DNA from: a virus
Lineage: Duplodnaviria; Heunggongvirae; Uroviricota; Caudoviricetes
Length of the DNA: 4,813 nt
Direction: 5' to 3' (one strand)
Virus record (IMG/VR): IMGVR_UViG_2563366830_000013
Of the stretch, positions 1 to 4,813 are shown piece after piece; within the stretch, counting starts at the first letter, position 1, and each line of letters starts with the position of its first letter. The position numbers were made by a program, and so were the translations under genes. The notes under the pieces were generated by a model. It saw only the letters and a program-made list of their open reading frames with translations, had not been told where the DNA came from and did no database searches.

Positions 1-244
1 CACGGCGGTGCGGAGTCCGGAGAGTAACGGCATAGCAGAGAGCTTCGTGAAAACGATAAAGCGTGACTACATCAGTGTCATGCCCAAACCAGACGGGTTA
101 ACGGCAGCAAAGAACCTTGCAGAGGCGTTCGAGCATTATAACGAATGGCATCCGCATAGTGCACTGGGTTATCGCTCGCCACGGGAATATCTACGGCAGC
201 AAGCCAGTAATGGGTTAAGTGATAACAGGTGTCTGGAAATATAG
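1..244 (+). CDS. insD: IS2 transposase OrfB (InsD), C-terminal fragment (5'-partial; reading frame enters from upstream)
   Basis: Open frame from window start to TAA at 242-244; translation …[62 protein letters not shown]… is typical of the C-terminus of IS3-family integrase-core (rve) transposases and matches IS2 InsD from memory. The M at 8 in the ORF track is an internal GTG, not the true start. Confidence 0.8.
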
Positions 245-486
245 GGGCAAATCCAGCCGATAAGAATTGATGCTGCTGGTTTGTAAAAGAGAAGGCCGCA
301 AAGAAAGCTGAGCATCGACAGGAGCACCCGGCGACGGATGGGGTACTCTACTGCAGAGGTAACAAAAATTACCACCCCAGCCAAAGCCCCTAAAGCAACC
401 TCCGGAGGGACACCTGCAATAACTGCAGCAAGAGAACCAAAACTAAGCAACTGATTTAATTGCTCATTTGTTACTTGAGCAGACAT
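169..486 (-). pseudogene. Small two-TM membrane protein (holin-like) gene interrupted by IS2; native first 77 codons (486->256) fused to 28 codons read from the IS2 inverted repeat
   Basis: ATG at 486-484 is preceded by a strong SD (minus-strand AAACAGGAGAAAGT-ATG). Native part MSAQVTNEQLNQLLSFGSLAAVIAGVPPEVALGALAGVVIFVTSAVEYPIRRRVLLSMLSFLCGLLFYKPAASILIG has two hydrophobic segments separated by a basic loop. After codon 77 the translation (WICPYI…) is read from IS2 terminal sequence. It lies downstream of the tailspike on the same strand, where lysis genes sit in T7-like gene order. The holin assignment is inference only. Confidence 0.5.
215..255. repeat. IS2 terminal inverted repeat (right end, ~41 bp)
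   Basis: Last ~41 bp of the IS2-like segment; contains the CCAGACA core I recall as shared by both IS2 ends. The target-site duplication cannot be checked because the other end is outside the window. Confidence 0.55.
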
Positions 487-767: not shown

Positions 768-794
768 CCCGCAATATTTTGCGGGCTTTTTTTT
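768..794 (+). terminator. Rho-independent terminator-like hairpin (7-bp GC-rich stem CCCGCAA/TTGCGGG, 4-nt loop, then C + T8) immediately 3' of the tailspike stop codon
   Basis: Perfect inverted repeat 768-774/779-785 followed by TTTTTTTT at 787-794. The T-tract is on the plus strand, so it is canonical for plus-strand transcripts; on the minus strand (tailspike mRNA) the hairpin follows an A-tract and has no U-tract, so it may act bidirectionally or mainly stop convergent transcription. Confidence 0.6.
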
Positions 795-3700
795 AACGTT
801 CTTCCAGAGACTGAACCCGCTCTTTTATCTTATCCATTTCTCTGCGCTGCCATGCTGCCTCGATATAGAATAAGAGATCAGGTCTGACCCCCCATCTAGA
901 TCCTGCTGGCGTTATTTCAACGCGCTCAATGATGTCTTCTATTACCATCACTGGATTATCATCATCATCAACAATGATGCTCCCGTCATTATCAGTCAGC
1001 GGCATTTCCCTTTGGCCAGTAATGACGTCATCATATACTGCGGGATAATCGTCATAGCAAAGAAAGGCATAGCGGCATGTTGTGCTTTCTTCTTCCATGA
1101 GTCCGTGAGAAATAAGAACATCACGAAGTTGCTGCGCGATTACACCATGATGTATCCTCGCCCCTTCTTCCCCCTTTATAGCGACAGCGTTCAGCCATTT
1201 ATAAGCGATATACCTGACGTCACCCCAGGCATCCAGCAATGCTTCGTCAGGAGAGACCGGCTCTGTCTTTAATGTTCCGTCACTGGTAACCACAGGATTG
1301 GAGCCAAGATAAACTGTCGAGAACCTGTTTCCCGGACCACCAAGAGCATTTACATTATCAAGATAAGGTTTAACATCTCCGTTCTCAAAAAGATGTTCGA
1401 GTGCGTTATATACCGCGCGACGTGGAGTACTGCTTCCGGAACCATGCAACGTTATCATTGCACCATCTGCTGAAGACGTTGTTTCACCGCCGCTAACGAT
1501 TAATCTCTGAGCGGTAACATCATCAGACGGTACTTTCTTCGCAATAATGGCGTAATTACCCTCAAGTTTGACTTCCGCGCGAACTTGTCCTGATGTACCT
1601 GCATGGACAGTCAGTGACTGGACGGCAACATCATCTGTGAAATCAACGGGTACAGGAACCGTCCTCACGCCTGACGTCGACATAAAAGTAGGAAGCGTTC
1701 TGTTAGGAGTGGCTCCGTAGACAAAATCCCTTGAAACAAATTCTTCCTGTTTAATTTTCACCCTGAAACAATACAAATCAGCCGGGTGACCATCGTGAAC
1801 ATAAGGATATTTTCTGTTGTTATCCCCTATGCTCCATGGGTTTAGAAAGTCTTCCCCACCGAAAATGTAGTACAGCCAGTTGTCTTTGATACAAACTGAA
1901 CCAACACCAACCGCAGAGTTAACTATTCCGCCCTGATAAATCTGATCAGTAACATTAACCCACTCTACATTATCCAGACTCCACTCATTGACGTTAACTC
2001 TGGTCATAAATGTTCTTGGATAATTTCCTGCATAACGGTTATCAGGTTCTCCTCCTTCCCACTCACCAAATGCGCGCTCACTGCCAAAAATAATCAGCTC
2101 ATCGCCAACTTTGGCAAAAGGAAGGTTTGAGTGATGAACATTATTTGGGAAGCGAAGAGAATTCCATGATGTACCTAAATCAGAGCTTCTGTGCAATGAA
2201 CTACCGGGTTGAGTACTTAATGTCCCCCTGGTCGTCAGATACAGAATGCCATCATAATATTTTACACATGGCTCAGATGCATTCGCCTCATATTCTACAG
2301 GTATGCGTCTGCGAACAAAGCTACCAGGAGAACCGAAAGCATCAGAGAAATAGAGTATCCCAAGCTCGCGTGGACCAATATCACCATTATGGTAGCCAAC
2401 AGCAAAACTGTTATCGCTAATCGTCGCAAAACTGTGAATCTCAGTAACAGGAGTGCTTCCGTCAACAAAAGAAGGAATAGTTCCAAGACTGGTTTTTCTC
2501 CATGGTGACGAGTGAAATGATGTGCCAAAACTCCAGTATCTACCCTCGTTATTCTGATCCACATCCTGGGTATTTTGCGTCGTAACTGTAAAGGTATTTT
2601 TATCAATAACAGTAGTCACCGTCATATTCCCGGTAACACCTGTAACACCAGAGTTTGAGAAGTTGACAAAATCACCAGCAAATAATCCGTGATCAGTAAT
2701 GCGAATATAAGCGACTTGCTGATTTGCTGCTTTCGTTATACCACCATAAACGCGAAGGCTGCGACTCATTGGGCGATCCCACAACTCTGCAACCTGCAGT
2801 TTATTTCCTCTCACGGTCCGCGTCTCAATTACAGCAAAAAGGCGATTTCTGACAACCCCCATACTCATGCAGTGATAGTTAACTGTGGGATAGTTTTCAT
2901 GTAAATCTGTAAGCCATTCCGGCGTTGTCCAGGTCTTCCCGTCATCTCCTGAGCGAACCCATGCAACATGGAGGTTATTTACACCATGGCGGTCTCCAGC
3001 CATAAAAGGCGCATAGATGACATTGTCATATACAAACGTTTTATCCTGCGTCCAGGCGTTGTACCACGGTGTATCTGTAATTTTAAATAACTCTCCCTGG
3101 ATAAAATCTTCAGAAGCATAAAAAAGAGGCTGGCCCGGTATTCTCTCAAATAAAAAACGAGCATTTTTAAATCGACTGACATCCGGAAGAGTTGATACTT
3201 TAAAAGTAAGCCCTAATCCGTCAATTTTATAACCTGGAGATGAGGCTTCAAGGCACGCGCTTATTGCAGTGGAATCGTCATTTATACCATCACCAACAGC
3301 TCCAAAATCTTTGGGGCTAATAGCATCACGCATTTTATCCTGGAACGTTCGGTACACAGCCCCAGAACCATACTGAATAAACCAACCAAAACCACCAACA
3401 ACTCCGGCGATTGCAGCATCGACATAATTACGCATTGAGCGATTATTTACAGCGTCCTGCTCAAATGATGGATCTGCAAGGTTAGAAATTTTGTTTTGCT
3501 TTGCATCGTAATATTTTGCAAGCAAAGATGGTTTCATCAATGCACGTCTGAACCACCCAAAACATTGCTGGATCAGCATCGTCAGGTAGTCAAAGGCATC
3601 TTCATGCACTTCGGGGAAAAATTTTCCCTGATTGCGAAGGTCTGTGTCCTGCACTACATCAAGCACACGATCTATCGTAATTCGCCATCCAGTAGCAAGC

Positions 3701-3912
3701 GGAGACGGAAGAACCACAGAACCGCCACTATAAGTGCCCGCCCCAGTTACCGTATAACCGGTATCCAGGACCAATTCTGTTACGTTCCCGTTCAGGTCAG
3801 ACACCTGAACAACCAGGTCTGATTTTCTGAAAATTCGAAAAGTATACGGAAACGATGTCGTAACGCCGTTACCGGTGTATTCGTTGTGGTCAACTTCGGT
3901 TGAGACCGTCAT
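793..3912 (-). CDS. Phage tailspike/tail-fibre protein, 1039 aa: T7 gp17-like N-terminal adaptor domain, central endosialidase-like glycanase region with two Asp-boxes, C-terminal intramolecular chaperone (peptidase S74-like) domain
   Basis: Long uninterrupted ORF with SD (minus-strand CTGGAGATTTAAC-ATG). The N-terminal ~150 aa follow the T7 gp17 N-terminal pattern (YTGNGVTTSFPYTF…DYTV…DLRNQG…). Residues 202-215 DFGAVGDGINDDST. Two Asp-box motifs: SGDDGKTW (aa 321-328, nt 2929-2952) and SSDLGTSW (aa 576-583, nt 2164-2187). C-terminal ~160 aa carry a Ser877…Lys882 spacing (TSDGTLK) and …DAWGDVRYI…IHHGVIAQQLRDV…, consistent with a self-cleaving C-terminal chaperone domain. The overall pattern resembles K1F-type endo-N-acetylneuraminidase as I remember it; substrate specificity is not proven. 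Confidence 0.9.
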   Translation of the reverse strand: MTVSTEVDHNEYTGNGVTTSFPYTFRIFRKSDLVVQVSDLNGNVTELVLDTGYTVTGAGTYSGGSVVLPSPLATGWRITIDRVLDVVQDTDLRNQGKFFPEVHEDAFDYLTMLIQQCFGWFRRALMKPSLLAKYYDAKQNKISNLADPSFEQDAVNNRSMRNYVDAAIAGVVGGFGWFIQYGSGAVYRTFQDKMRDAISPKDFGAVGDGINDDSTAISACLEASSPGYKIDGLGLTFKVSTLPDVSRFKNARFLFERIPGQPLFYASEDFIQGELFKITDTPWYNAWTQDKTFVYDNVIYAPFMAGDRHGVNNLHVAWVRSGDDGKTWTTPEWLTDLHENYPTVNYHCMSMGVVRNRLFAVIETRTVRGNKLQVAELWDRPMSRSLRVYGGITKAANQQVAYIRITDHGLFAGDFVNFSNSGVTGVTGNMTVTTVIDKNTFTVTTQNTQDVDQNNEGRYWSFGTSFHSSPWRKTSLGTIPSFVDGSTPVTEIHSFATISDNSFAVGYHNGDIGPRELGILYFSDAFGSPGSFVRRRIPVEYEANASEPCVKYYDGILYLTTRGTLSTQPGSSLHRSSDLGTSWNSLRFPNNVHHSNLPFAKVGDELIIFGSERAFGEWEGGEPDNRYAGNYPRTFMTRVNVNEWSLDNVEWVNVTDQIYQGGIVNSAVGVGSVCIKDNWLYYIFGGEDFLNPWSIGDNNRKYPYVHDGHPADLYCFRVKIKQEEFVSRDFVYGATPNRTLPTFMSTSGVRTVPVPVDFTDDVAVQSLTVHAGTSGQVRAEVKLEGNYAIIAKKVPSDDVTAQRLIVSGGETTSSADGAMITLHGSGSSTPRRAVYNALEHLFENGDVKPYLDNVNALGGPGNRFSTVYLGSNPVVTSDGTLKTEPVSPDEALLDAWGDVRYIAYKWLNAVAIKGEEGARIHHGVIAQQLRDVLISHGLMEEESTTCRYAFLCYDDYPAVYDDVITGQREMPLTDNDGSIIVDDDDNPVMVIEDIIERVEITPAGSRWGVRPDLLFYIEAAWQRREMDKIKERVQSLEER

Positions 3913-4015
3913 GTTAAATCTCCAGATAGTCGCAGCACCCGTTGCGCCGCATATCTGGTTATTCTATTACCTGAAAAACCATATATGGATAAAAAGACTA
4001 TAAATACCAATAGAT

Positions 4016-4032
4016 ATTACCTTTCGGGTAAT
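4016..4032. promoter_or_regulatory. Palindromic candidate operator ATTACC-N5-GGTAAT in the divergent intergenic region
   Basis: Perfect 6-bp inverted repeat with 5-bp spacer. A near-identical palindrome ATTTACC-TTTGC-GGTAAAT recurs at 4395-4413, and isolated ATTACC half-sites lie at 3966-3971 and 4374-4379. The binding protein is unknown. Confidence 0.35.
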
Positions 4033-4068
4033 TTGCAAAACGTGCTGGATAGCAAACAAATTATTTGT

Positions 4069-4088
4069 TACTGTATAAACATACAGTT
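4069..4088. promoter_or_regulatory. LexA (SOS) box, near-consensus
   Basis: TACTGTATAAACATACAGTT matches CTGT-N8-ACAG and 17/20 positions of the E. coli consensus TACTGTATATATATACAGTA. It ends 19 nt upstream of the ATG at 4108 and would overlap any promoter for that ORF; it is also about 157 bp upstream of the divergently oriented tailspike start. Confidence 0.75.
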
Positions 4089-4107
4089 ATTGCATGGAGA
4101 AGATAAG

Positions 4108-4365
4108 ATGCAGCAGTATCACTATCCACTGGAAGACGGATTTACCGAAAGGATTCACACGCCGGGAGGCGTCAGGTCACTGGTGGAGGGATCGCACTTG
4201 ATGAAATTACTCCGGGATCTCGATAAGGATGGATTTAATGTCGATGGCCCACTTGCCGAACTGACTGCACTGATTAACTACGTCACCAGCTCACAGATGT
4301 CTATGCAGGATCTGCAAACACATCTCGACTATTGTGCCGAACAATTACGAAAACAAACCAGATAA
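4108..4365 (+). CDS. Hypothetical small protein (85 aa), putatively SOS/LexA-regulated; function unknown (candidate antirepressor or regulatory factor)
   Basis: ATG at 4108 preceded by GGAGA (4096-4100) at 7-nt spacing; stop TAA at 4363-4365. The ORF track's upstream in-frame ATG at 3985 has no SD and would make the LexA box coding, so 4108 is preferred. No transmembrane segment; no family recognised from the sequence MQQYHYPLEDGFTERIHTPGGVRSLVEGSHLMKLLRDLDKDGFNVDGPLAELTALINYVTSSQMSMQDLQTHLDYCAEQLRKQTR. Confidence 0.65.
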   Translation: MQQYHYPLEDGFTERIHTPGGVRSLVEGSHLMKLLRDLDKDGFNVDGPLAELTALINYVTSSQMSMQDLQTHLDYCAEQLRKQTR

Positions 4366-4504
4366 GGTTTGCAATTACCAAATGGAGTGCTTATATTTAC
4401 CTTTGCGGTAAATTTACATCGCACTCCTCTTGTGCCATAGTAATCGGGCACTGGCAAAATCCAGTGCCGGGATTGGTCTCCCGGATTACTACAGAGGCAC
4501 ATAT

Positions 4505-4524
4505 GCCGCATAAGCGGTTTTTTT
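4505..4524 (+). terminator. Putative Rho-independent terminator (short GC stem GCCGC/GCGG with 4-nt loop, followed by T7)
   Basis: GCCGCATAAGCGG followed by TTTTTTT at 4518-4524 on the plus strand, about 140 nt downstream of the 4108-4365 ORF and after a cluster of stable hairpins. The stem is short (4-5 bp), so it may be weak or conditional. Confidence 0.5.
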
Positions 4525-4678
4525 ATGTGTAAAGCGCACCTATTCTATGGTGGGCTGTGTGGGGGCACCGAAAGGTGCGCCGGGTTCCTTTGTAGCCGGT
4601 AAGACCAACTCTGCACAGTTCACCACCATCTGATTGGTCTCAGCGGTGGTGATTAACCTAACTACAAAGGTGATCGCT

Positions 4679-4813
4679 ATGAATACCAAACCTTCCATCT
4701 TTTCCTTTGAGTCATCCTGCCAGATCCGTATGTTCATGATTGACGGAGAACCTTGGTTTGTCACCAAAGATGTGTGCAATGCTTTGAATATTGATGTTAC
4801 ACAAGCGAGAAAA
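4679..4813 (+). CDS. Bro-N domain protein (phage antirepressor-like), N-terminal 45 codons; 3'-partial, continues beyond the window
   Basis: ATG at 4679 with SD AAAGG (4666-4670) 8 nt upstream; translation MNTKPSIFSFESSCQIRMFMIDGEPWFVTKDVCNALNIDVTQARK shows the Bro-N signature (F.F……IR…IDGEPWFV.KDVC.AL). Not in the ORF track because no stop is reached within the window. Confidence 0.8.
   Translation, partial: MNTKPSIFSFESSCQIRMFMIDGEPWFVTKDVCNALNIDVTQARK

Follow-up and report, generated by a model that had tools for sequence, protein, structure and literature searches.

The two palindromes of the form TTACC-N5-GGTAA that flank a small LexA-regulated gene in the DNA analysed here (the window, a stretch of 4,813 nucleotides) are very probably operators, of consensus aTTACC-N5-GGTAAw, of the repressor Rep that the prophage itself encodes, a protein of the type found in phages epsilon15 and SPC32H. 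The assignment is based on the operators annotated in the GenBank record of epsilon15, which may themselves be an in-silico prediction, and on comparative evidence. As judged from the alignments, the palindrome upstream of the small gene (site 1) is already known, being a plain ortholog of an annotated epsilon15 site; the downstream palindrome (site 2) is, on the same grounds, an unannotated member of the same operator family, and it belongs with a module composed of an isrK-family RNA, a C4 antisense RNA and a BRO-type antirepressor, not with the small gene ant.

The prophage and its genes

The window is part of an Escherichia coli prophage similar to epsilon15 and phiV10 (Uetakevirus) and is 99.96% identical to the prophage of strain MS 196-1 (NZ_CP146681.1), which we call the host prophage; DNA resembling it occurs in 543 of 5426 complete E. 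coli genomes (about 10%). The features of the window and those of the related genomes to which we refer are collected in Table 1.

The small open reading frame between the two palindromes encodes a homolog of Ant (PDB 5D50_E, E 4e-47), and its SPC32H ortholog is annotated 'ant'. The ant gene of SPC32H is reportedly controlled by LexA, in keeping with the gene names in GenBank. A LexA box was found together with a start codon in 77 of 80 related viral contigs, and it is kept in a 10-sequence alignment (A2) in which the Klebsiella phage is the most divergent. The Rep homolog of the host prophage shares 99% identity with the repressor of phiV10 and 43% with the Rep proteins of epsilon15 and SPC32H; its N-terminal NLVNRW is invariant despite the low overall identity.

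Downstream of ant, the isrK-family RNA has a terminator-like site at 4505-4518. The upstream a1/b1 target element (RF03163) gave a match of 39.9 bits, short of its gathering score (46.7), which coincides in part with that of isrK.

IS3-family elements (window 1-486; L004 18997-20210 and 31853-33081) break the holin gene and a structural gene, and this copy of the prophage therefore probably cannot finish lytic growth, its regulatory sites being intact. The annotation of the tailspike as an endosialidase, with a catalytic domain of the beta-propeller kind, implies that the phage is specific for the K1 capsule; relatives that share this regulatory region have very different tailspikes, among them SGNH hydrolase, GH28 and beta-helix types.

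Table 1. Features of the window and of the related genomes; positions without prefix are those of the window, and L003, L004, L006 and L007 designate loci of epsilon15, the host prophage, SPC32H and phiV10, respectively.
Feature	Position	Strand	Remarks
IS3-family transposase fragment	8-244	+	holin gene broken by the fragment
Tailspike (endosialidase)	793-3912	-	divergent from ant; likely target of site 1
Lone ATTACC half-site	3966-3971		inside block ~3962-3990, conserved across eight genera
Site 1, ATTACC-TTTCG-GGTAAT, 17-bp palindrome	4016-4032		divergent tailspike/ant intergenic region
LexA box CTGT-N8-ACAG	4071-4086		upstream of ant; read from the sequence
ant, small antirepressor	4108-4365	+	homolog of SPC32H Ant
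Promoter-like TTGCAA-N17-TATATT	4369-4397	+	consensus scan; 3' end of -10 overlaps left arm of site 2
Lone ATTACC half-site	4374-4379		starts at last base of -35 TTGCAA
Extended inverted repeat GGAGTGC...GCACTCC, predicted RNA hairpin	4384-4427	+	around site 2; specific to the lineage
Site 2, ATTTACC-TTTGC-GGTAAAT	4395-4413 (core 4397-4411)		promoter region of the isrK/C4/BRO-antirepressor module
Promoter-like TTTACA-N17-(TG)CATAGT	4413-4441	+	consensus scan; -35 abuts right arm of site 2
isrK-family RNA with terminator	4448-4524	+	Rfam RF01394, 74.7 bits (gathering score 50)
C4 antisense RNA	4543-4630	+	Rfam RF01695, 78.6 bits (gathering score 45)
BRO-N domain antirepressor gene, 5' part	4679-4813	+	matching gene WP_001525323.1 (RefSeq annotation); continues beyond the window
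Rep homolog	L004 4431-5015	-	WP_000836293.1; PDB 5D50_A, E 3.5e-42; ~23 kb from the window; flanked by motif clusters
PL-like promoter beside rep			TTGACA, about N17, AATTAT, then TACC
Promoter past the replication genes			TTGATT-N17-TTTAAT, then TACC
62-bp operator pairs, host prophage	L004 4297/4359, 7395/7457		
62-bp operator pairs, epsilon15	L003 32555/32617, 35907/35969		
62-bp operator pairs, SPC32H	L006 33604/33666, 35972/36034		
62-bp operator pairs, phiV10	L007 31953/32015, 35070/35132		
Motif positions shared with epsilon15, SPC32H and phiV10	ahead of small terminase gene; ahead of portal operon		
Motif positions shared with epsilon15, SPC32H and phiV10	ant-tailspike interval; ahead of lysis genes		
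Motif positions shared with epsilon15, SPC32H and phiV10	2-3 per side of repressor gene; 2 past replication genes		

Abundance of the palindrome in the window and in the prophage

Both palindromes and both lone ATTACC half-sites are present as an earlier, sequence-only reading of the window had reported them; that reading also held that all copies of ATTACC fall in the two intergenic regions around ant, which is not the case, three of the seven lying elsewhere (368, 941 and 1555). With up to one mismatch allowed, TTACC-N5-GGTAA has exactly two matches in the window (4017-4031 and 4397-4411), while 200 dinucleotide-preserving shuffles of the window give a mean of 0.10 matches and none of them reaches two. 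The seven copies of the hexamer, counted on both strands, compare with 2.7 expected, and 4 of the 200 shuffles reach seven, a mild enrichment; the statistical weight is carried by the full palindrome and not by the hexamer.

In the 34.7 kb of the host prophage the motif has 13 exact copies against 0.035 expected, 12 of which are intergenic in a genome whose intergenic share is only 10.8% (binomial P about 3e-11). No copy is present in the 15 kb of chromosome next to the prophage, and the surrounding genome thus offers no comparable density of the motif, which the sequence-only reading had named as the sign of a compositional artefact; the palindromes are also found, as that reading would have it, in the orthologous regions of six genera.

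Identity of the motif and extent of the Rep regulon

Seven sites are annotated as protein_bind 'repressor; lysogeny' in the GenBank record of epsilon15 (AY150271.2), and the consensus of the seven extracted sequences is ATTACC-N5-GGTAAT. Site 1 is an exact match to this consensus and aligns column for column with the epsilon15 site at 19895-19911, between gp19 (the Ant homolog) and the tailspike gene. Site 2 agrees with it over the 15-bp core TTACC-N5-GGTAA and has T and A in its two outer positions. Corresponding places carry 11 exact copies in epsilon15, 10 in SPC32H and 8 in phiV10, and the positions that are shared (Table 1) delineate what is, by prediction, a dispersed Rep regulon in which a putative operator heads most transcription units.

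These results bear on the regulator proposed in the sequence-only reading, namely an unnamed dimeric protein, encoded outside the window and acting through a pair of operators. A repressor of the prophage, with its gene outside the window, is well supported as the DNA-binding protein and can now be given a name, a Rep of the epsilon15/SPC32H type. As for its oligomeric state, secondary literature describes Rep as a tetramer on palindromic DNA sites (PMC9638917) and the Ant tetramer as taking the Rep tetramer apart (PMC9638917; PMC9986798). Moreover, the two palindromes do not form a dedicated pair, being two members of a regulon that extends over the prophage. The same reading had mentioned Arc/Mnt-like proteins as an example; in the RefSeq annotation near the site clusters of the host prophage no Arc/Mnt ribbon-helix-helix regulator appears by name, and the adjoining gene is the helix-turn-helix Rep homolog.

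Operator pairs exactly 62 bp apart (about six helical turns) were observed at the PL-like promoter and at the promoter past the replication genes in all four genomes. This spacing fits an arrangement in which two palindromes on one face of the DNA are occupied by one tetrameric repressor.

Site 1 in the interval between tailspike and ant

The ant start follows site 1 at a distance of about 90-110 nt in phages and prophages of eight genera (Escherichia, Salmonella, Citrobacter, Erwinia, Pseudocitrobacter, Scandinavium, Enterobacter and Klebsiella). The arms of the site are invariant and its 5-nt spacer is free in the 10 sequences of alignment A2, the exception being a single base in phiV10 (GGTGA); among the 77 viral contigs with a locatable LexA box, the site is exact in 63 and has one mismatch (GGTGA) in 14.

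The consensus promoter scan gave nothing for either ant or the tailspike, and their promoters were for this reason placed by hand from conserved blocks. The ant promoter would overlap the LexA box. On the other side of site 1, the conserved block 3962-3990, which reads ATTCTATTACC..AAAAACC.TATATGAAT and holds the lone half-site, contains on the minus strand TCCATA-N17-TAGAAT, a candidate tailspike promoter below the threshold of the scan; its -35 element is TTCATA in most relatives and TCCATA in the window. Site 1 lies upstream of the -35 elements of both presumed divergent promoters, which is not a classic position for occlusion and leaves its exact target less certain. The tailspike is the best candidate, as this gene needs a promoter of its own and is expected to be silent in the lysogen.

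The 5' leader of the tailspike (3925-3955, minus strand) contains a short GC-rich hairpin of the GCGC-N5-GCGC type, conserved across genera. A larger structured leader was considered and dropped, since the alignment supports the short GC hairpin only, with zero covariation or compensatory changes. Furthermore, the sequence TTGCAA adjoins an ATTACC/GGTAAT arm twice, at 4034-4039 and at 4369-4374, in opposite orientations; it occurs as GGTAATTTGCAA at site 1 and as TTGCAATTACC ahead of site 2, and the second copy is unconserved in other junction types.

Site 2 and the isrK/C4/BRO module

Site 2 is exact in 72 of 73 copies of the module in related viral contigs, and its ten core positions do not vary among the 11 sequences, from six genera, of a second alignment (A1). 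It stays directly upstream of isrK where another gene separates ant from the module. In epsilon15 and SPC32H, neither the module nor site 2 is present and a terminator follows ant instead; with the module missing, epsilon15 has nothing that corresponds to site 2. A search of species-representative genomes returned only 5 loci, from distant genera.

The isrK/C4/antirepressor modules of APSE-7, VT2-Sakai and SW-37, which are associated with other repressors, retain a promoter ahead of isrK and have no TTACC-N5-GGTAA upstream of it (Gifsy-1 was outside this set). Since modules under other repressors lack the palindrome, it would appear to be matched to the resident repressor and to be no part of the RNA module. 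The phiV10 record, which includes the module, annotates no operators, and no paper describing site 2 was found in the literature searched, a set that lies outside the primary papers on SPC32H and epsilon15.

Two promoter-like sequences surround site 2, one overlapping its left arm with the -10 element and the other abutting its right arm with the -35 element (Table 1), and the predicted start of the latter coincides with the 5' end of isrK at about 4448, where the Rfam isrK model starts. The block TGCCATAGT is invariant in all 11 sequences of A1; the -35 element TTTACA is retained in most of them and lost in phiV10 and Scandinavium. As for the first promoter, whose predicted start lies near 4404, a TTGNAA or TTGATT -35 element and a TATNAT -10 element that touches the operator are found again ahead of the module even in junctions of unrelated sequence. 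The -10 likewise adjoins the left arm at two further promoters of the host prophage, and both of these have a partner operator exactly 62 bp upstream. In Gifsy-1, isrK and, by read-through, the antirepressor are transcribed from the isrK promoter (PMC4825925), and overexpression of the BRO-type protein of vB_EcoP_ZX5, a close relative, promotes lytic growth (PMC9782041).

We took the lone half-site at 4374-4379 for a possible auxiliary site and then rejected this, as it is missing from other junction types; being unconserved, it is probably incidental. In phiV10 (L002 1993-2033) the palindrome at site 2 has longer arms, perfect over 18 bp, GGAGTGCTTATATTTACC-GCAAA-GGTAAATATAAGCACTCC, which take the place of the TTTACA -35 element present in the window and in most relatives. 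The host prophage also carries a second isrK-like module (L004 22794-23085), 80.7% identical to window 4391-4681, with a Rep operator pair of its own (22707 and 22800) and located ahead of Rha/ORF6N-type genes; the accessory region around it includes a toxin-antitoxin gene.

Alternative explanations

The palindromes could act in the RNA instead of the DNA, site 1 as a small hairpin and site 2 as the innermost helix of a hairpin between ant and isrK that would serve as leader, attenuator or terminator, a possibility that the sequence-only reading had raised for the second palindrome. Palindrome 2 does form, as that reading described, the inner stem of the predicted hairpin at 4384-4427; the folded region (4380-4432) reaches -17.6 kcal/mol with a z of -5.5, transcripts reading through from the LexA-controlled ant promoter would contain all of the hairpin, and the perfect 18-bp arms of phiV10 point in the same direction. 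However, the hairpin of site 1 has only -5.1 kcal/mol and a z of -0.5, no more stable than shuffled sequence, and at site 2 the five core pairs never vary, giving no support from covariation, while pairing in the outer stem extends to only 62% of cells across relatives and disappears beyond the E. coli lineage. The hairpin is not followed by a run of T, the isrK/C4 modules of the other phages examined are without the palindrome, and the 15-mer occurs at 13 places of the host prophage that are nearly all intergenic, both sides of the repressor gene included. An RNA role is accordingly very improbable for the palindromes as a whole, and RNA structure as a conserved function was rejected on account of the invariant core, the unconserved outer stem and the weak fold at site 1; the hairpin of site 2 may be an extra layer in this lineage only.

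Improbable as well, if somewhat less so, is that the sites are bound mainly by a phage protein other than Rep, such as a Cro-like product encoded beside rep or another regulator. Cro-type proteins usually share operators with the repressor, and a small open reading frame divergent from rep (L004 5170-5400) would be a candidate; sharing, however, would add to the Rep model and not replace it, the epsilon15 annotation gives the sites to the repressor, and binding of palindromic operators by Rep has been published, as reported in a secondary source (PMC9638917). Chance or base composition, finally, has a negligible probability. The hexamer alone is only mildly enriched and has three copies outside the intergenic regions, but the full motif stands at 2 against 0.10 in the window and at 13 against 0.035 in the prophage, all but one of the copies there being intergenic, and it is conserved in six genera. 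Binding by Rep is the reading that we retain for both sites.

Comparison with known systems

Epsilon15 and SPC32H, the latter with solved structures of its repressor and antirepressor (PDB 5D50 and 5D4Z), share with the window the 17-bp palindrome ATTACC-N5-GGTAAT and the position of site 1 between the small LexA-controlled ant and the tailspike, and with its prophage the dispersed sites at matching positions and homologous Rep and Ant proteins. They differ from it in the sequence of Rep (43% identity) and, downstream of ant, in having a terminator and neither the isrK/C4/BRO module nor a counterpart of site 2. PhiV10 resembles the window in possessing the module, in a record free of operator annotation.

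A second parallel is provided by the immI region of P1 (c4 antisense RNA, icd, ant1/2), where, as in the window, an antisense RNA of the C4 family heads an antirepressor operon. The C1 operators of P1 are asymmetric 17-mers, and both the repressor family and the operator sequence are unlike those of the window. The P1 operon is under a double hold, by the master repressor C1 and by the C4 RNA (PMC8198154), and by analogy site 2 could be the functional counterpart of the C1 operator in immI. In contrast to P1, the window has an RNA of the isrK type ahead of C4, a BRO-N protein as antirepressor and, directly upstream, another antirepressor under the control of LexA. The isrK-orf45-anrP region of the Salmonella prophage Gifsy-1 has, like the window, an isrK RNA preceding an antirepressor (the isrK of the window scoring 74.7 bits); the module of the window is distinguished by the Uetakevirus Rep operator at the isrK promoter, absent from APSE-7, VT2-Sakai and SW-37 (Gifsy-1 being outside this comparison).

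A possible cascade of two antirepressors

The arrangement of the sites suggests a switch in which Rep would act on both sides of ant. Bound at site 1, Rep would help to hold the tailspike promoter off in the lysogen and perhaps damp ant; bound at site 2, it would block transcription of the operon composed of isrK, the C4 RNA and the BRO-type antirepressor, because this site overlaps the 3' end of the -10 element of one promoter-like sequence and abuts the -35 element of the other, from which isrK would start. Upon DNA damage LexA would leave the ant promoter, and the small Ant protein would then disassemble Rep and free every Rep operator, site 2 included, with the possible release of a second, RNA-gated antirepressor. 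We tentatively propose that the operators bracketing ant might constitute a two-stage antirepressor cascade of this kind, with the BRO-type operon locking induction in, a scheme that we regard as possible, if less likely than not; a loop may perhaps be involved, one Rep tetramer bridging sites 1 and 2, which are 380 bp apart, with ant looped out, in parallel to the 62-bp operator pairs at other promoters of these phages.

With Rep as the probable regulator, the sites of the window find their place in a map of the Rep regulon for this type of prophage. Site 2 adds a modest new point, namely that a module similar to immI of P1 may have been brought under an unrelated master repressor simply by means of an operator that it carries at its promoter, and it would illustrate clearly how mobile regulatory modules become connected to the switch of their host phage. 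The prediction that follows for these phages is that two antirepressors would operate in series.
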